From Candidatus Saccharimonadota bacterium (GTDB lineage: Bacteria; Patescibacteriota; Gracilibacteria; Absconditabacterales; Absconditicoccaceae): a stretch of 32,000 nt of DNA. Numbering within the stretch: the first letter of the stretch is position 1; each line of letters starts with the position of its first letter. The stretch lies in the NCBI GenBank assembly GCA_965231145.1, contig OZ246420.1, positions 480,001 to 512,000 on the forward strand, given 5' to 3'. Both the position numbers and the translations under genes were made by a program. The notes under the pieces were generated by a model. The model searched no databases. It worked only from the letters and a program-made list of their open reading frames with translations, and was not told the DNA's origin. Shown here piece after piece: positions 1,532 through 32,000 of the stretch.

Positions 1532-2134
1532 CTAAAACTTACTAGAGAAATTTTCTTCCACCTGTTTCCAGTTGATCACATTCCAGAAGTTTTCTATGTA
1601 TTCTGCTCTCTTGTTTTGGCATTTCAAATAGTATGCGTGTTCCCAAAGATCGATCCCCATTACTGCTTTCTCTCCGAGCATCAAAGGATTGTTCTGATTT
1701 GCTGTCGTCATGATTTCGAGATCATCATGTTTCTTGATCACCCATGCCCACCCAGAACCAAATACACTCATGGCAGCATCCGTAAAAGTCTTTTTGAATG
1801 CATCCATACCGCCAAATGAACCTGCAATTACCTTCTTAAAAGCATCGCTTGGCTCACTCTTTTCTGGTGACATAATCTTCCAAAAAAAAGCATGATTCCA
1901 GTGACCTCCGCCATGGTTCCTTACTGCATTACGCATATCTTCTGGCAGGATATCTATTGACTGTAACAGCTCTTCGAGCGATTTTTCTTCAAACTCAGTT
2001 CCTGCAACCGCAGCATTGAGTTTATCGATATAGATCTGATGATGCTTCGTATGATGGATTTCCATTGTCTTTGCATCTATATGTGGTTCCAATGCATCAT
2101 ACGCATAAGGCAATTCTGGAAGTGTGAAAACCAT
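1532..2134 (-). CDS. sodA: Fe/Mn superoxide dismutase (200 aa, no UGA)
   Basis: LPELPYAYDALEPHIDAKTMEIHHTKHH, GGGHWNH, GSGWAW and DLWEHAYYL are hallmark Fe/Mn-SOD motifs. Confidence 0.95.
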   Translation of the reverse strand: MVFTLPELPYAYDALEPHIDAKTMEIHHTKHHQIYIDKLNAAVAGTEFEEKSLEELLQSIDILPEDMRNAVRNHGGGHWNHAFFWKIMSPEKSEPSDAFKKVIAGSFGGMDAFKKTFTDAAMSVFGSGWAWVIKKHDDLEIMTTANQNNPLMLGEKAVMGIDLWEHAYYLKCQNKRAEYIENFWNVINWKQVEENFSSKF

Positions 2135-2361
2135 AAGTAATTATATTATTATGTAAAATCTTTTATCTTGTCTGTAATTATATTTCTCTTAAACTGATCA
2201 TAGTGTCAGTTAATTTTATATATTCCACTTCTAGTTTTATCAATTTCATTGTAGAAAAAATATTCTATATCTATTCTATCTTCTATTATTATTTCTTTGG
2301 GTAATGAGTTTTCATATAATTCTTCAGCGTGCATTCCTGAAAAATGATAAAGAATAAAAAC

Positions 2362-5359: not shown

Positions 5360-8300
5360 TTACTCCATTTTTAGTTTGGCAATTTCAAGCTTCATCATAG
5401 TGATCTTCTGTTTCACTTCGTCCAGTTTTTTTTGTTTCTCTTCTACGACGTTTGCAGGAGCGCTGCTTGAGAAACTTGGATTGGTAAGCATATTTCTTAG
5501 TCCCTGCATATAATGTTCTTCATCGATGAGCTGTTTTTCAAGATTTGCAAGTTGCGTTTTTTTGTCGATAACAACAAGTGCTTTGAGTCCAATTTTCATG
5601 TCGATAACCATCGCAGACTGATACTCTGCAGGCATCTCATCATCCTCTCTGAGGTATTCGATGTGCTCAGTTTTTACCAGATCTTTGACAAGGTTTTCGT
5701 ATGATTTTACGAAGTTGTTGAAACTGACATTTGCCTGGAGGATGATATCAGCATTTTCGTGTGGCTTCACTTTCTGTTGTGAGCGAAGGTTACGCCACTC
5801 AGTAATCATATCCATAAGGATAGAGATCTTAAAGTCTTTTGGTGTTCCTTCAAGTTCTGTTGGCCACGATGCAACACAAAGCAGTCCTTCAAAGTGCATA
5901 TGTTGCCAGAGTCTTTCAGTCACGAAAGGCATGTAAGGATGGAGTAATTTAAGGATAGTTCCGATCGCATACAAAAGCACCTTATCGGTATAGTCTGATT
6001 TTTCACGCTTTGATATTTCGATGAACCGGTCGCAGAAATCTCACCATACCATATTTATCACGCTTTCCCCAAACTGACCAAGATGATAGTCTGCGAACAT
6101 TCTTCCTGACTCCTCTATGATCATATTGATCTTGCCAACCATCCACTTATCGAAGTGATTGAGCTTATCCATATGTTTCGTGATGTCCTCTTTGATGGCA
6201 TCGAGATCGAGATGAATTTCTTCACTACCCTCTTCAAAGATTTTTGTCGAAACAAATCTTACTGCATTCCATAATTTATTTGCAAATCTATAGTAGTAGT
6301 CCACTTTCTGTTCACTGTAATTCAAAGGATTTCCTGGGGTTGAGCCAACGATAAGTCCAACACGTAATGCATCAGCACCGTATTTTTCTATTACTTCCAG
6401 TGGATCCATAGCATTTCCTAATGATTTCGACATCTTGCGGCCTTTTTCATCAAGCACGATACCATGGAAATAGACAGTCTTGAAAGGCATGCTATTCATA
6501 TTTACGGCTCCCATCATCATCATCCTTGCTACCCAAGGAAAGAGGATGTCGTTTGCAGTCTCAAGAAGATCATTTGGATAGTATTCTTCAAGATCAACTG
6601 TTTTATCAGGCCAGCCAAGTGTTGAAAATGGCCATAGCCCTGAAGAAAACCATGTATCAAGTACGTCTTCTTCTTGGTGAAGAACAGTGTCTTTGAGGCC
6701 AGCAAGTGATACAAAATCGAACGTATACTGATCTTTGTCTTGTATGATCAAGAGAGAATTGTCGAGCAGATCAATGAGACTTTCCATCTCCTTGATATTG
6801 CTCTTGTCGCTGAAGATCTGTTTGAGTTCTTCTATCTCCTCTTTGAGATCAATATCTTTGAGTTCGTAGACAGACAAATATGTATCAAGTACCCTACCTC
6901 TGTGTTCTACGATACTCTGTGATGAAAGCACATCGATAAGTTCTTCGATACTAAACTTCTCTGGCAGACGAGAATCAGCTACGAGATTGAATATGATAAG
7001 TGATAATAATAATCTTTGCTCTTTGCTCTTTGATTTTTTAGTTGTTGCGTAAGCAACGATAGAGTCTTCATCAAAAACATAGTTATTTCCAGCTGGATCC
7101 TTCCATACTGGTATGCGATGTCCCCACCAGAGCTGACGAGAGATACACCAAGGCTGTACATTATCGAGCCAGTTGTGGAAGTCATGAATAAATCTTTCTG
7201 GATAGATCGTTACTGCTTTAGTGTCAATTGCTTCAAGCGTTTGAGCGGCCGCGTCTTTTACGTCAACGAACCACTGTCTTGAAAGTAATGGCTGGATACG
7301 AGTTTTTGATCTTTCGCAGTATGGAACATTGTGTACGTGCTTTTCTACTTTTTCCAAGTTGCCGATCTCTTCAAGTTCGGTTATGATATTGTCATACACG
7401 TCAGCAATCTTTCTTTTCCCATACACCGGACCCGCAAGCTCAGTGAGAAATCATTTTTTGTCGATAGCAAATCTATCCATAGGAAGACTATTTCTCATAC
7501 CAATTTCATAGTCTACCGGATCATGTGTTGGAGTTATTTTTAACGCTCCTGTTCCAAAAGTCATATCTACTGCAGCATCTGCAATCACGGGAATTGGTTT
7601 GTTGATGATAGGGATAAGAACATTTTTCCCAACAATCTTTTTATATCTTTTATCGTGTGGACTTACTGCAACTGCAACATCAGCAAAAATTGTCTCAGGA
7701 CGAGTCGTAGCGATGGTGATACTATCACCTTTCCCCTGGATAAAGTACTTGATATAGTAGAGATTTCCTTCTTCCTCTTTGTGGACTACTTCGCTGTCCG
7801 ATACCACGCTCTGTGTACCTACCGATCGATTTACTATACGAGCTCCCTCGTATATTTTTCACTGTGTGTACAAATTAGAAAAGGATTTTCTTACTGCACG
7901 TGAAAGTCTTTCCGACAGCGTAAACTCTTCGCGTGACCAGTCAAGCGATGCTCCCATTTTCTTTGTTTGCGAGATGATGGTATTTCTTGATTTTTTAGAC
8001 CAATCCCATACTTCATCTATAAATTTAGCACGACCAAGCTGCTCTCTGTCTTTTCCTTCTTTACGAAGTTTATCTTCTACCTTTACCTGTGTTGCAATAC
8101 CCGCGTGATCTGTAGCTGGAAGCCAAAGAGTCTTCTTGCCATTCATACGCTGATAACGAGTGACTATATCTTCCACCGTAAGCATAAGTCCATGTCCTAC
8201 ATGGAGTACTCATGTTACATTTGGCGGAGGGAGTGTTATCATAAATCTTTCTGAAGCATCAACCTTCTTTTTGCCTTTGGTTGATTTCTTGTTGCTTTGA

Positions 8301-20150: not shown

Positions 20151-20400
20151 AAAAAAACTCCTCAAGAAAACCGGCTACAAACCCGTATTTCCCTGAAGAG
20201 TCGCGTGGAAAACCACACTTTCCCTGTAATTTTACTATTAAGGGGGACCGCTCCGATCGCCTTTTTATTCCAAATAGATAGGTCGTAACCTATTATTTCC
20301 ATGGTTAAGCCATGGCAGTTATAATATGTAAACATATTGACCGGGAATCACACCGAGGCGCTGCAACCATTTTTTATATAGTGTAAGGGGAACGATAAGT
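20151..20400 (-). ncRNA. Structured RNA of unknown class, or cis-regulatory leader of the udk-like gene
   Basis: No ORF. Hairpins are CCATGG/CCATGG (20299-20315), ATAGGT-UACG loop-ACCTAT (20278-20293), and GCGTGG/CCACAC (20203-20218). A closing 7-bp stem (20158-20164 with 20194-20200) is followed by U7 on the minus strand. G-U pairs work only on the minus strand. The element ends about 70 nt upstream of the ATG at 20080. Confidence 0.45.
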
Positions 20401-20430
20401 TATTTCTCTTTATAATCAATATTTTCTTAT

Positions 20431-20463
20431 AAAAAAAGCCTCCTCCAAGCATGCCTGGAGGAG
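20431..20463 (-). terminator. Intrinsic terminator ending the GC-rich RNA
   Basis: CTCCTCCA (20440-20447) pairs with TGGAGGAG (20456-20463). On the minus strand GC plus U7 follows (plus-strand A7 at 20431-20437). Confidence 0.7.
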
Positions 20464-21023
20464 ATTTATAGATTATCTGTTTGTTTTGTTGCCCGGGTGG
20501 CCGGTGCCCGCCTGCTCGGCAATATGCGAGTTGTGATCGGTGGCTGTGGCGCTCTGCGTGGGCGAGATTGAATTCGTTGTTTGGTAGCTACTTTGGACTT
20601 AAGATAGTCCAAAAGCCAGATGCATGCAAGTTTTTCATAACTGCTGTGGTTTTTGGATGTTAACTTTGACAGAGGATTTCAAAAGTTTTTCGGCTTAGTG
20701 TTTAGCGTAGCTACGTGGGGGATAAGATCCGCCCAAAGCCAGTTGTCTTTTGGTCCATTGAGCTTTTTAAGCTGAACGGCACCGTACTCTTACGACATTT
20801 CTCATGGAATGCGAATTGAGAGTTTGGTGATTAATTTTTTTTACCGAGTTTTTGCCTTGTGGCGCTGGCCAGCTTTCCCTATGGATTGCTGCTGCCGCCC
20901 TGGCCCTGGTAGTGATGTGCCAATGTTATGATATTCTTCTGTGCGCTGCCATAGTTGGGCGCCCCTCGGCTCTGGGCCGGTAACATTTTTACGGTTGCCA
21001 TAAAAGTGGTTTTTATTTGTGTA
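20464..21023 (-). ncRNA. Large GC-rich structured RNA; candidate RNase P RNA (weak motif resemblance) or an unclassified large RNA
   Basis: About 560 nt with no credible ORF. Runs such as GCCCGGGTGGCCGGTGCCCGCC occur in an AT-rich genome. It has its own promoter (21030-21057) and terminator (20431-20463) on the minus strand, and many local helices. On the minus strand, in 5'->3' order: AGGGAAAGCUGG (20869-20880), GAGAAAUGUCGUAAGAG (20787-20803) and CGCUAAAC (20700-20707). Confidence 0.4.
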
Positions 21024-21029
21024 CCAGAA

Positions 21030-21057
21030 ATACTACTCCATGAAATAAGAAAGTCAA
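21030..21057 (-). promoter_or_regulatory. Putative promoter of the GC-rich RNA
   Basis: On the minus strand: TTGACT (21057-21052), a 16-nt spacer, then TAGTAT (21035-21030). It lies directly after the aspS terminator. Confidence 0.45.
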
Positions 21058-26596: not shown

Positions 26597-27277
26597 ATGG
26601 ATAGCTATATGCCTAAAGTTACTCCAGATCAGCTTTGCTCTGCTCTACAATTATGTAGTGTAAGACAAAAAGGAAATGAGTATTTTGTCGCAGTAAAGAA
26701 GCTTGACGGTACTATGTCTGAAATCCCATTTGCAGATATAGCAAATGCTGATATATATGACAACAAACCTATTGTCAGAACATACAGCTCTGGCCATGCA
26801 TTTTTCAATGAGGATACATCAAAAGTATTTCTTATCAGCGTAGAGAAGAAGTGAACAAAGCAAATACAGTTTACCGGAGGCGCTCCCCTTGAAGAAATCA
26901 ATAAAGACGTTGTCTTTCAGAAAGATGGTCAGATTCAATTTCATCTGTGAAAAATAGAAGAGAATGCTCTCATACGTACAAAAAACAGGACGTGAGTAGA
27001 TGTTTTATTGCATTGGAATGAGCTGCCTCTTGTTGACTGGGCACTTATTGAGAATAGTAATGACGAATGAAAAACATATCGAAGGCTTGTTTGTCTCTTA
27101 CATTATATTGTAAAGTCTTATGAAGGAGAATTAAAAGCACAGGTATGAGTTGAAGATGTCATAGACGGTCAACGATATGACGTACAGGACATTATTGATA
27201 ATAAGATAGAACACATTGCACCAAATGCCAGTATCATTATACAAAAGGCATTGGAAATTATAAAATCCGTATTGTAG
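26597..27277 (+). CDS. Hypothetical protein (226 aa, 5 UGA)
   Basis: Track ORF 26597-26854 continues in frame through five TGA codons to TAG at 27275-27277, checked codon by codon. No family recognised. Confidence 0.5.
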
Positions 27278-27351
27278 GGACGTAATATTTTACGTCCTCC
27301 CCGTATGTAATTCACGTATGATTGTTAGTAGGGACAACATTATTGTTGTCC
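27277..27351 (+). other. Pair of similar GGGAC-stem hairpins upstream of glyQS
   Basis: GGACGTAA-TATT-TTACGTCC (27278-27297) and GGACAACA-TTAT-TGTTGTCC (27332-27351) each have an 8-bp stem and a 4-nt loop. A CGTATG direct repeat lies between them. Confidence 0.5.
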
Positions 27352-27380
27352 GTGAAAATATGATATTTAATTTTGTATAT

Positions 27381-28820
27381 ATGAAAATGAGCGAAAGAAA
27401 ATTTGGGTTAGATGCGATCGTAGCATGGGCAAAGAGAAGAGGTTTTGTCTATCCGAACTCTGATATCTATGGAGGTTTAGCTAATGCATGGGATTACGGT
27501 CCATATGGTTCGTGGCTCAGAAAAAACATCTCTGATGCATGGATTAAGACGTTCATCCAGGAAAGAGATGATATGGCTATGATGGATACCACTATCCTCG
27601 CTCACCCTACAACATGGGTTGCAAGCTGACATGTTGGCTCATTTTCTGATGCACTTATCGATGATAAGAAAACAGGACAAAGATTTAGAGCAGATAAGAT
27701 CATTGAAGAATATATTGAGTCTATAAGAAATGGGAGAAATGATGATGAAGTTGCAGCAGAACTTGGGGTTAAAAATCTTTCGCCGGAAGCATGGTGAAAC
27801 GAAGGTATGCATGACTTTATTGTAAAATATATTCCAAAGAATCCTGCAAATAAGAAAACTGCAGAATGGACGGAAGCAAGAAATTTCAATCTCATGCTCG
27901 ATACGCATCTTTGACCAGTTGCAGATGATTCGACCAAAGTATACATGAGACCAGAAACATGTCAGTCACTCTTTACTGACTTCAAGTCTGTCTGTGATAC
28001 AACAAGACTCAGAGTTCCATTTGGATTGGCTCAGATTGGTAAAGCATTTAGAAATGAGATCACTCCAGGACAATTTCTCTATAGAATGCGTGAGTTTGAG
28101 CAGATGGAAATAGAATATTTTGTTCCTGCTGATAAAGATGTTGCTCAGAAGCACTATGAACAGTGGAAAGAAGACGCTATGAGATACTGGACGGAAGTTA
28201 TTGGTATCAACAAAGAGCATTTGAGATTTAAAGATCATGAGAAGCTTGCGCACTATGCTGCAGCTGCAACTGACGTAGAGTTCCTGTATCCATGGGGTTG
28301 GGGTGAGATTCAAGGAGTACACAATAGAACTGACTTTGACTTAAAGCAACATCAGGAATACAGCAAGAAAGACATGCAATATATTGATCCAAAAACAGGA
28401 GACAGATATATTCCATGGTGTATTGAAGCATCATTTGGTCTTGGAAGAACAATGATGGTAACGATGCTTGAGTTCTACGATGAAGAAGAAGTGAAAGAAG
28501 GAGATATGCGTGTGGTAGTAAGATTTCCTTTCGCATTGGCACCGGTGAAATATGCTATCTTCCCTCTCATGGAAAAAGATGAAAAGATGATGGAAACAGC
28601 AAAAGAGATTACTCGTAAGCTCAAGAAACAGGGTATCAATGTTGAGTACGATGGAGCCGGAAATATTGGAAAAAGATATAGAAGACAGGATGAAATCGGT
28701 ACTCCATATTGTATTACTATCGATCATCAAACTCTTGAAGATGGTACTGTTACCATCAGACATAGAGACAGCATGGCACAGGAAAGAATTGCCGCAGATC
28801 AGATTGTTTCATTTAAGTAA
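27381..28820 (+). CDS. glyQS: Glycine--tRNA ligase, dimeric class II type (479 aa, 3 UGA)
   Basis: IYGGLANAWDYGPYG, WVAS-G-HVGSFSD (TGA 27627-27629), RPETCQ, FRNEITPG..REFEQMEIEYF and an anticodon-binding C-terminus. Track ORFs 27318-27629 and 27945-28820 are in the same frame. Confidence 0.95.
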
Positions 28821-28826
28821 AAAATA

Positions 28827-28859
28827 GGTCATAGGTAATAAACAACCTATGGCTTTTTT
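28827..28859 (+). terminator. Intrinsic terminator of glyQS
   Basis: GGTCATAGGT (28827-28836) pairs with ACCTATGGC (28845-28853), followed by T6. Confidence 0.7.
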
Positions 28860-28887
28860 AATAACAAAGATAAGAGATATTCTTACC

Positions 28888-29097
28888 CGTCGGATATACC
28901 CACGTCTCCTCTTTACGATCTTGAGGTATGATAGGAGTGTTAGTATTGAGCTGGAGTCGCTGTGATGTGCGCGACAGCGAAATACTTCGTATGCAATACA
29001 TGAGGGTTACACAGGCTCGTAGTGCTATATCCGACTAGACCCTTTTGGTTACTTTTTAGGGATATGCTAAAAAGTGACGCCCCTCCGGCAGGAGAAA
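28888..29097. repeat. Left arm of long inverted repeat (148-bp perfect core plus imperfect extension and a 29-nt hairpin insertion)
   Basis: 28888-29035 is the exact reverse complement of 30318-30465, checked in 10-mers. 29036-29046 and 29076-29097 match 30307-30317 and 30281-30303 with indels. 29047-29075 is unique to this arm. Confidence 0.9.
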
Positions 29098-29182
29098 GAG
29101 AAAGATATTGCTTTAGTAGTATATAGCATAATAACATCATTATCACTACTACAAATTTACTTATAGGAGAGTCAATAGTGAT

Positions 29183-30238
29183 ATGTTTATTATCTCTCGT
29201 TTTTGCCTTTTCAATGTCTATATTTATCTTGTTACTCTTTTATGCGCCCTTATCAAACTATTACATATGCATAAATTTTCTAAAATTGCTTTCATCGCTA
29301 TAGGTCTTTTCGGGTGATTCGCTGGCATCTCATCTGCAACATCGCCTACTATGGTATCATGAGTTCCCATAAAAACATTTTGTGCTTCGTATAAAAAAGA
29401 AGTCGAGACGAAGTCTATCGCCACTTTGCTGGCGATAAAGATAAAAGAAAAGCCTTTTCAAAAAGCAGCATTGCTCAGACAGTATCAAACATTTACGTTG
29501 CTTGGAAAACAGCATTGTAAAATAAGTACTCCACCAAAAGTAATTACTCCTGTCACCAAAGCTGCTTCACCGACGAGTATAGATATATCAAATAATAAGC
29601 CGATTATTATTACTACGACTGCAAACTACCAAACGCCTGCTGATTATTTTAAAGGATATGAGATAAGTGATATTATTGGCATTACGCCCGAACAAATGCA
29701 AATAACGCTCCAGAGGATAGAAAGAGCAAAGGAGATCTATGCAAATATTATTGAGAAGTTTATCGAGAAGGAGTGGTTTGCGTTATCGGATAGAAATGAG
29801 ATGGTAGGGAAGATTTGATTTAGGTTCTCGCAAAATTGTAATGAGCTTGATGGTAAGATCCTTGTAAGACAATGGTATGATAAAAATCATAAGCCTATAA
29901 AAAATGAGCTCGTCAACCTGTTTATTACTATTAATCTCTGCTTCCAGCCGATCTACGAAGATGGCTATGATAAGTTTTTAGAGAAGATTATCTATCATGA
30001 ACTAGGTCATTACCTAAATTATTTTCATGACGAAGACGATTCATGATTTAAATCTCTCTGCTGGGAAGGAGATACATCTATCTGTTCAAGCTCTCAGTTT
30101 ATCACGAACTATGCATCTACTGAGCCAGATGAAGACTATGCAGAATCATTTGCCTATTACGCACTCAATGACCGGCCGGTCAGCAACGATCTTCTCCAGC
30201 AGAAAATAGATTACTTTAGAGCAAAGTTTCCTAAGTAA
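29183..30238 (+). CDS. Membrane-anchored HExxH zinc metallopeptidase-like protein (351 aa, 4 UGA)
   Basis: The track ORF starts at TTG 29426, but the frame is open back to ATG 29183 (GGAGA at 29166-29170) through 2 TGA, which adds a hydrophobic N-terminus. It continues through TGA 29816 and 30044 to TAA at 30236-30238. HELGH is at 29996-30010, with EDYAESFAYY downstream. Confidence 0.65.
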
Positions 30239-30254
30239 TACAAGACTTTATCGC

Positions 30255-30278
30255 AAACAGGTTCATCCCTGTTTTTTT
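30255..30278 (+). terminator. Intrinsic terminator of the metallopeptidase gene
   Basis: AAACAGG (30255-30261) pairs with CCTGTTT (30268-30274), with the T-run continuing to 30278. Confidence 0.7.
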
Positions 30279-30280
30279 AA

Positions 30281-30465
30281 TTTCTCCTGCCGGAGAGGGC
30301 GCCTTCGAAAAGGTCTAGTCGGATATAGCACTACGAGCCTGTGTAACCCTCATGTATTGCATACGAAGTATTTCGCTGTCGCGCACATCACAGCGACTCC
30401 AGCTCAATACTAACACTCCTATCATACCTCAAGATCGTAAAGAGGAGACGTGGGTATATCCGACG
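30281..30465. repeat. Right arm of long inverted repeat
   Basis: See the left arm. The core is 30318-30465. The unit is itself bounded by GTCGGATATA (30318-30327) and TATATCCGAC (30455-30464). Confidence 0.9.
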
Positions 30466-30511
30466 AATAAGAAGATACATAAATATAACAAATGATTTCT
30501 AAAGCCATGTT

Positions 30512-30545
30512 AAAAAAAACTTCCGTGAGATACGGAAGTTTTTCT
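30512..30545. terminator. Bidirectional intrinsic terminator (clpC 3' end)
   Basis: AACTTCCGT (30518-30526) pairs with ACGGAAGTT (30532-30540), with an A8 run upstream and a T-run downstream. Confidence 0.75.
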
Positions 30546-30547
30546 TA

Positions 30548-32000
30548 TTATGCATTCATCATCTGGTCGATAAGCTGAGGTTCGATCTCGTCATAAATGT
30601 ATCTTTCGATAGGACGAGCTCCAAACTGAGGATTGTATATTTTGTCGATAATTTCTTCTACTTTTTTCTTGGTAAACTTTGGTATCTTCACTCCTTCCTT
30701 TTCTTTCCATGCAGCAAGGAATTCAGTTACCTTCATGACAAATATTTCACCAAGCGCTTCCTTGCTCAGGGGTCTGAAGACGATCGTATAGTCAAGTCTA
30801 TTGAGAAGCTCAGGCTTCATGTGGTCTTTCAGGCGTTCCATGATGCGCTGTTTCTGCTGATCAAAGTCTTTATTTGCTATATGCTTTTCATCTCCGCCTT
30901 CAAATCCAATAGATGCAATCTTTTTACCAAATTCTTCTGAACCAATATTTGATGTAAGGATAATAATCGTTGATTTAAAGTCTATCCAGCGCCCTTTATT
31001 ATCTTTGAGATGTCCTTCATCGAGAATCTGGAGTAATATGTTCAAGACATCAGGAGATGCCTTTTCCATCTCATCAAAAAGAACAATACTGTAAGGCTTT
31101 CTTCTGACTGCTTCCGTAAGTACTCCTCCTTCATCGTATCCAACATATCCTGCAGGAGATCCGATAAGTTTTGAAGCGCTATGTTTTTCCATAAATTCTG
31201 ACATATCGACACGGATGAGTGCTTTCTCGTCTCCAAAGTATTCTTTTGCAAGAAGCTTTGCGAGATAGGTCTTACCGACACCTGATGGTCAAAGGAAAAG
31301 AAATGAAGCAATAGGTTTATTTTTTTGTACTACCGAAAGCCTGTTTCTTTTGATAGATTTAACTACAGCTTCGATCGCATCTTTTTGCCCTACAACACTT
31401 CCTTCAAGGCGTCATTCAAGTCTCTTGAGCTTATCTGTCTCACTTTCTGTCACCATATGTGCTGGCACACCGATCTTATCAGCGAGGACCTGTCAAACAT
31501 CAAACACTGATACGGTAGGTCTGAGATGTTCAGGAAGCGTATTTTTCATACGAAGCGTCTTCATGTGTGCTTTGATCTTCTCTTCTTGTTCCTTTAGTTC
31601 GGCAGCCTGGAAGTAATCCTGTTTCTCGATAGCTTTTTCTATCTTTTCTTGTACACCAAGAAGCTTTTCTTCCTGTTTTTTATAGTCATTATTCTTCTCA
31701 AGCTTTTCGTTCATAGTAGACTTTCTTGCAGATGCTTCATCGATAATATCGATAGCCTTGTCAGGTAGATGCTTATTGAGGATATATCTTTTCGAGAGTT
31801 CTACTGCCTGTGCAATAGCTTTATCGTCAATGACTACTCCGTGATAATCTTCAAAATTCTTTTTAATGCCCTGAAGGATAAGCATCGTATCATGAGTATT
31901 TGGTTCATCGATATGAAGCTCCTGAAATCTTCTTTTCAGTGCAGCATCTTTTTCGATATGTTTCTGATACTCATCAAATGTGGTAGCACCAATAAGCTTG
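30548..32000 (-). CDS. clpC: ATP-dependent Clp chaperone ClpC-type, 5'-truncated by the window edge
   Basis: NBD2 Walker A is FLFL-G-PSGVGKT, with TGA at 31289-31291. Also present: [16 protein letters not shown] and GARPIERYI. An IGF loop ([10 protein letters not shown]) and a UVR-like [15 protein letters not shown] in the middle domain favour ClpC over ClpB. Confidence 0.85.

Follow-up and report, generated by a model that had tools for sequence, protein, structure and literature searches.

Why should a small bacterial genome carry two long and perfectly identical inverted repeats around a single gene? The question is raised by a stretch of 32,000 nucleotides from a Candidatus Saccharimonadota bacterium (contig OZ246420.1 of assembly GCA_965231145.1, positions 480,001 to 512,000), here called the window, in whose coordinates all positions are given unless another locus is named. 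Between glyS, which encodes glycine–tRNA ligase, and a clpC-type gene, the gene for a putative secreted zinc metallopeptidase is bracketed by a left arm (28888-29041, plus strand) and a right arm (30312-30465, minus strand). A sequence-only reading of the window had offered three models for this arrangement: an invertible segment, a mobile unit of foldback or composite type that carries the peptidase as cargo, and a small RNA gene present twice in opposite orientations. The last of these fits best. The arms are stem-closed, enriched in GC and non-coding, a single orthologous copy occurs in another genome, and its closing stem differs from that of the window by compensatory changes. With even confidence, the arms are read here as a convergent pair of copies of a structured element that is restricted to one lineage and is most likely a small RNA gene, the two copies having been homogenised by gene conversion. 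The element is new and rare but falls into a familiar class, that of small structured non-coding elements that are duplicated and evolve in concert; if it is an RNA gene, its family would be a new one.

Two identical arms and their structure

In a base-by-base mirror comparison, the left and right arms are exact reverse complements over 154 of 154 positions. They had earlier been described as a 148-nt match, which is real and lies where it was placed, but the perfect block is longer, as TAGACC at 29036-29041 is also identical. A repeat search of the window returned ungapped arms of 169 nt (28877-29045 and 30308-30476) with 98% identity and 1262 nt between them. One 38-nt piece taken from the arm has exactly two occurrences in the window, and none of 100 shuffles produced any match. 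Moving inward, the arms share TAGACC and TTTT and then a hairpin of 18-21 nt; the earlier claim that similarity continues toward the centre is borne out, the second match lying at 29080-29097 and 30281-30298 (18 nt, 94%; BLAST E = 0.006 within the window). Directly inside the perfect block, the arms differ by indels of 1 and 31 nt and at further positions. On the outer side, the flank of the left unit (28877-28887) still resembles 30466-30476 in degraded form, with matches at about 8 of 13 positions or about 60% over about 11 nt. The edges of the perfect block agree with those of a stem-closed core to within 1 and 6 nt.

The whole unit is about 200 nt long. Its 148-nt core has a 10-bp closing stem of its own, and one or two small hairpins come after the core. 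The closing stem, P1, through which each arm folds back on itself, is formed in the left arm by 28889-28898 (GTCGGATATA) and 29026-29035 (TATATCCGAC) on the plus strand and extended by CAC/GUG. A second, independent version of the element was found among the fetched loci and contigs of relatives and other genomes, numbered L001 to L015. It lies in L003 (SRR24524665), the closest relative, whose GlyRS fragment is 97% identical. There P1 reads GCCGATTGTA ... TACAATCGGC, so that four of its ten pairs are changed on both sides relative to the window and none is broken. The core interior differs between window and L003 at 29% of ungapped positions, with 23 gapped columns. In a neutral simulation at 29% divergence, at least four compensated pairs with none broken had a probability of about 1.5e-5. 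R1, a covariance model derived from the left arm together with the L003 copy, scores 249 bits on the left arm, 222 bits on the L003 copy (1613-1810) and 184 bits on the minus strand at 30278-30467, the right arm.

Next to the core of the left copy stands hairpin 1 (29048-29078), with a 12-bp stem and the loop GGATATG. It is shared with L003, where two stem pairs covary and the 21-nt TTTTTAGGGATATGCTAAAAA, made up of the loop and adjacent stem bases, is identical. In the right copy hairpin 1 is replaced by a mini-hairpin, CCTT-TTCG-AAGG (30299-30311). Some hairpin is retained at this position (30299-30311 in the right copy, 29042-29079 in the left) in all three copies. Hairpin 2, CTCC-GGCA-GGAG, occupies 29080-29097 in the left copy, where its minus strand and the T-run that follows resemble a terminator, and 30281-30298 in the right copy. 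Its equivalent in L003 lies directly 3' of a minus-strand open reading frame (ORF) and looks like the terminator of that small ORF. The presence of hairpin 2 in the right copy therefore shows that copying took in a segment of DNA and did not keep to the precise bounds of an element.

The GC content of the element is 0.48 against 0.38 for the window. A coding function is excluded by the indels of 12, 5, 3 and 1 nt that separate it from L003, which are not uniformly multiples of three. A six-frame pseudo-protein of the arm retrieved nothing from 5.8 billion proteins, and an exact look-up of the 47-amino-acid ORF in the arm found no record of it. In the core of L003, GAGGACGAAATGCT is duplicated in tandem at 1660-1690, and in the window a different hairpin, rich in GC, takes this place (GCTGTGATGTGCGCGACAGC); the element is highly plastic in its apical part.

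The locus in relatives and the origin of the identity

The glyS neighbourhoods of relatives were compared. The order glyS-peptidase-clpC is kept in four relatives, three of which have no element and one of which, L003, has a single copy. In L010 (DRR438495) the glyS stop codon is followed after 14 nt by the peptidase gene and then by clpC, and the element is absent. It is also absent at the locus in L012 and L014, where about 150 nt holding only a terminator separate glyS from the peptidase gene (L014 ends before clpC). In L004 (GCA_017992195.1), 350 nt unrelated to the element precede the peptidase gene, and 46 nt separate it from clpC. In L003 the element lies downstream of glyS and is followed by a minus-strand ORF of 112 amino acids, the peptidase gene, one terminator and clpC. 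A right-hand copy near clpC is absent from L003, L004, L010 and L012. The peptidase orthologues are 82% (L003), 49% (L004) and 43% (L010) identical to the window protein, with HExxH in all of them.

As these orthologues occupy the glyS-clpC slot together with one element or none, the peptidase is resident there and not cargo. The gene is an old resident of the glyS-clpC interval and the element the lineage-specific addition, with a right arm that is specific to the lineage of the window. A comparison of glyS-clpC synteny had been proposed to look for an empty site; the slot is occupied by the peptidase gene in the relatives, so the gene is not an insertion, and the model of a mobile unit with peptidase cargo fails on the same ground.

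Several minor observations belong to this interval. The L003 ORF between element and peptidase gene (1818-2156, minus strand) encodes a four-helix membrane protein that matched no Pfam or NCBIfam family. The window lacks about 320 nt that carry most of this ORF in L003, where it is intact; only a promoter-like site (GTGATA-17-TATACT) and the first codons of the small membrane-protein ORF are present, on the minus strand at 29110-29150. Immediately ahead of the left arm, TTCTTACCCGT (28880-28890) resembles TTCTTACACGT in L010 (10877-10889, between the glyS stop and the peptidase start), and may be a remnant of an ancestral short spacer. In L013 (11018-11124) and L015 (1547-1630), glyS is followed not by the peptidase gene but by an ORF resembling type IV pilins, with the N-terminus FTLIEMLIVIVIIGI, which indicates that the region 3' of glyS has been repeatedly rearranged in the clade.

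From these data a history of the arms can be proposed. The left copy would be ancestral, as one orthologous copy stands at the same place downstream of glyS in L003. The right copy would have arisen in the lineage of the window by inverted segmental duplication, which took along part of the neighbouring hairpin. The 154-nt core would then have been kept identical, or recently made so, most simply by intrachromosomal gene conversion between the copies. Perfect identity had earlier been attributed to recent copying, gene conversion or selection. The first two find support here, but purifying selection alone does not suffice, since the core is 29% diverged between species and shows 0 of 154 differences between the arms, while the flanks of the arms differ. 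The 31-nt indel and other differences in the inner flank also disfavour a very recent plain duplication. The identity is most simply explained if the inverted duplication is older and gene conversion has since acted across the core; the alternative is a second, recent re-copying of the core, for which the near coincidence of the block edges with the stem-closed core leaves room. Recombination between the 154-bp arms could also flip the 1.27-kb segment, and such inversion would be a by-product of the repeat and not a switch.

The locus resembles duplicated small RNA genes and other paralogous repeats under gene conversion, such as rRNA and tuf genes, in that the copies are identical, sharply bounded, structured and non-coding. 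As in concerted evolution of the rRNA and tuf type, the flanks and the orthologue in the sister species have diverged. In contrast to duplicated small RNA genes, the element has no Rfam counterpart, is found in two genomes, has its copies inverted and 1.27 kb apart, and is known from sequence alone. Knowledge of non-coding RNAs and of the dynamics of repeats is scant for the bacteria of the Candidate Phyla Radiation that use genetic code 25 (SR1). The locus provides a candidate structured RNA with clear stem covariation and a clean case of inverted paralogues that evolve in concert, within a reduced genome of 1.1 Mb. The same outcome removes the more exciting readings, a peptidase-carrying mobile unit and a phase switch.

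Competing explanations

Several results weigh against two homogenised copies of a small RNA gene. The covariation comes from one comparison between two independent element sequences, those of the window and of L003. Inside P1 the fold is not consistently conserved, each minimum-free-energy fold keeping about 70% of its pairs in the other sequence. Both strands fold better than shuffled sequences, with z = -1.6 and -3.1 in the window and -3.5 and -4.2 in L003, and the signals for the strand conflict. The outer-to-inner strand is favoured by wobble pairs and by the fold energy of the alignment (-37 against -28 kcal/mol), whereas an intrinsic terminator 25-50 nt after the core is found only in the inner-to-outer direction, in all three copies. 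A convincing promoter for the element was sought and found on neither strand. The closeness of the block edges to the core edges would also fit a discrete unit that copies itself. Rfam 15 gave no hits in the window at gathering thresholds, and ARAGORN reported nothing there. Applied to 121 kb of related loci and, with filters off, to the window, R1 recovered only the three known copies, and patterns made from conserved blocks yielded no real further copy in the genomes of GTDB, the JGI metagenomes or IMG/VR.

Among these patterns, GTTACACA..AGTGCTA..CTAGACC had no match in GTDB genomes or JGI metagenomes, CGTA..CAATAC.TGA..GTTACACA none in JGI metagenomes, and the CGAAAT... block and a 19-mer of hairpin 1 none in IMG/VR. 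The 19-mer had four hits in GTDB genomes, all unrelated to the element. Even at E values up to 10, Rfam placed nothing beyond chance-level hits inside the arms or the L003 element, and BLASTN in distant mode against phages and plasmids found no match to the element. The Logan contig of L003 runs straight through its element copy, which implies that the copy shares no 31-mer with other sequence in that sample. The element family is rare and probably of low copy number, which argues against an actively spreading miniature inverted-repeat transposable element (MITE).

One of the four GTDB hits of the hairpin 1 19-mer lies in an unrelated metagenome-assembled genome, CSMAG_888 (L007, DAOUWZ010000012.1), where TTTTAGGGATATGCTAAAA lies at 7418-7436, 35 nt upstream of an HU gene. 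Its context there is promoter-like (TAGACA, 17 nt, TAAAAT, with an upstream TG), and the recurrence may reflect chance or a shared promoter-like motif.

Other explanations follow in falling order of probability. The first is that a small non-autonomous repeat of the MITE or ERIC type landed beside terminators on either side of the peptidase gene, with the identity of the arms due to recent insertion; this is unlikely. The core ends in 10-bp terminal inverted repeats, the GTCGGATATA ... TATATCCGAC of P1, and the perfect block matches the core almost to its edges. Presence and absence vary among close relatives, both strands fold well, as those of palindromic elements would, and each of the three copies has an intrinsic terminator at a distance of 25-50 nt, with the relative orientation the same in all. 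The ERIC/IRU, Correia and other MITE-like repeats share with the element a length of 130-220 bp, terminal inverted repeats, a stem-closed fold on either strand, the intergenic position beside terminators and the presence or absence between close relatives. In contrast to them, the element lacks target-site duplications and shows no sign of a copy number above two, the terminator hairpin of a neighbour was copied along with it, and it is not similar in sequence to any known repeat (BLASTN against phages and plasmids). The flanks are CCC and TAGACC in the left arm and in L003, and TTC and TAGACC in the right arm. Homology between the arms passes beyond the terminal repeats to hairpin 2, the terminator-like hairpin of the L003 gene, as expected of segmental copying and not of precise transposition. 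The L003 copy appears to be unique in its sample, and the 121 kb of related loci and the public collections searched yielded no further copy, against two in the 32-kb window. The compensatory changes in the terminal repeats sit at an orthologous site, and recognition by a transposase does not predict them.

No transposase was found either. Domains of recombinases, transposases and reverse transcriptases were absent from the ten otherwise unassigned window ORFs that were scanned under code 25. The remaining ORFs, not all of them scanned, were judged from their own sequences and from the Pfam labels of syntenic genes in relatives, and look like housekeeping genes. The earlier statement that the window contains no recombinase or transposase agrees with this result.

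It is distinctly unlikely that the arms are a neutral, functionless inverted duplication of intergenic DNA whose identity reflects a very recent event. Such an origin would agree with the restriction of the right copy to the lineage of the window, with the part of a terminator hairpin that was carried along, and with the fact that the candidate RNA has so far been seen only as DNA sequence, a point that also counts against a small RNA gene. It does not explain why the left closing stem and hairpin 1 were kept by compensatory changes, which mark the source copy as structurally constrained. A recent event should moreover have left the inner flank identical, whereas the 31-nt indel and further differences adjoin the 154-nt block.

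A more speculative pair of possibilities is doubtful. The 154-nt core might be an undescribed structured RNA or single-strand hairpin element that copies itself downstream of intrinsic terminators, or the peptidase segment might undergo a flip-flop driven by RecA. In the self-copying variant, the element would be restricted to one lineage of Absconditabacterales, and the perfect identity would reflect active copying and not passive gene conversion.

A programmed invertible segment, in which a phase-variation switch flips the peptidase gene, is improbable, although inverted repeats around one gene have the right geometry. Perfect homology over 154 bp suffices for RecA-dependent inversion, and the flip is mechanically possible. 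As in Hin/Gin, fimS and the invertons of Bacteroides, inverted repeats enclose a short gene-bearing segment, but the arms have 154 bp instead of about 10-40 bp, several times the length of typical invertase sites, and no invertase was found adjacent to them, nor any site-specific recombinase in the ten ORFs scanned. In further contrast to invertons, the gene would take its terminator (30255-30281) and its probable promoter along. The segment also contains the region upstream of the gene (29117-29266), which is conserved in L003. With the terminator inside, and the promoter probably so, flipping would switch nothing, and an on/off logic is not evident. The assembly also shows the ancestral orientation, and relatives do without the right arm.

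An assembly or amplification artefact is very improbable. Assemblers can mis-thread a perfect inverted repeat whose length exceeds that of the usual k-mers, and the orientation of the inner segment is not verifiable from these data. Two Logan contigs of the same strain, L001 (ERR4405439) and L002 (ERR4405441), both end exactly 30 nt inside the left arm. In a graph assembly with k=31, a contig break is expected where a sequence occurs in two contexts. The breaks at the same position in two separate sequencing runs thus argue against an assembler artefact. The flanks of the arms are homologous and yet diverged, a single orthologous copy exists in another sample (L003), and the NCBI contig on which the source protein is listed has 1,107,293 nt, which suggests a finished genome. 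Contigs with k=31 are identical for either orientation of the inner segment. In practice, a short-read assembly cannot tell which way round a segment lies between perfect inverted repeats as long as these.

A composite or foldback unit with peptidase cargo has the geometry in its favour and can be dismissed, as the peptidase orthologues of L003, L004 and L010 occupy the glyS-clpC slot with one or zero element copies, the arms (154-220 nt) encode nothing, given the frame-breaking indels and the empty six-frame query, and no direct repeats flank the unit. The likeness to the composite transposons Tn5 and Tn10 is limited to identical inverted arms around a single gene; the arms here are non-coding and ten times shorter, and the enclosed gene is resident in relatives that have no arms.

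Known classes of RNA and repeat were also considered as identities of the element and rejected. Motifs similar to the CUGA and GAAA of the hammerhead ribozyme occur, and the core lacks the required helices. The conserved motifs of the signal recognition particle RNA, 6S RNA and RNase P RNA are absent, with no Rfam hit. An integron attC site would require R'/R'' core sites, which are absent, and the orientation is inverted. For ends of the IS200/IS605 type or an omega-RNA there is neither a conserved target tetranucleotide nor tnpA or tnpB. A retron non-coding RNA lacks its reverse transcriptase, and for a diversity-generating retroelement the arms are identical and intergenic, with no reverse transcriptase in the ten ORFs scanned. 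A riboswitch or leader of the peptidase gene is incompatible with the minus-strand gene that lies between element and peptidase gene in L003. Hairpin 1 as a promoter was rejected as well, because its -10 lacks the invariant T and its stem covaries.

Genetic code and neighbouring genes

The window uses genetic code 25, in which UGA encodes glycine. Under table 11 every long gene of the window is fragmented, and when UGA is read as sense the residues in ORFs of at least 150 amino acids rise from about 3,400 to about 13,800. UGA occurs at conserved glycines, for example in SGH of GlyRS and in the Walker A motif GPSGVGKT of ClpC. The genome belongs to the Absconditabacterales (SR1). Those relatives of the GlyRS fragment that bear a name, with 69-72% identity, carry the annotation Absconditabacterales or candidate division SR1.

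The open frame with glyS (27264-28820, plus strand) is intact only under code 25, and its start lies inside this range, probably near 27380. On the other side, the 3' part of the gene for the clpC-type AAA+ ATPase (30548-32000, minus strand) runs past the end of the window. The peptidase gene had been reported as a single gene at 29183-30238. The gene is confirmed, but it is intact only with UGA as glycine, and the ATG at 29267 is a likelier start than 29183 because it aligns with the start called in L003. The resulting gene (29267-30238, plus strand) encodes 323 amino acids with an HExxH motif. The match to Pfam Peptidase_Mx1 is weak (E = 7e-5, below the curated cut-off), as is that to an NCBIfam family of HExxH lipoproteins. 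Terminator-like hairpins were found at all three places where the sequence-only reading had put terminators. That of glyS (28826-28855) is terminator-like on both strands and lies about 35 nt outside the left arm, that of clpC (30515-30543) is flanked by an A-run and a T-run about 50 nt outside the right arm, and that of the peptidase gene, with its hairpin at 30255-30274 on the plus strand, lies inside the segment bounded by the repeats.

Elsewhere in the window, about 0.9 kb between a uridine-kinase-like gene and a class II aminoacyl-tRNA synthetase gene (tRNA-synt_2), at 20160-21030, reaches a GC content of up to 0.51 and contains no convincing code-25 ORF and no Rfam hit. A gene in decay, DNA of foreign origin and an unknown RNA are all conceivable. 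The gap is not conserved in relatives, and in L010 it measures about 257 nt.

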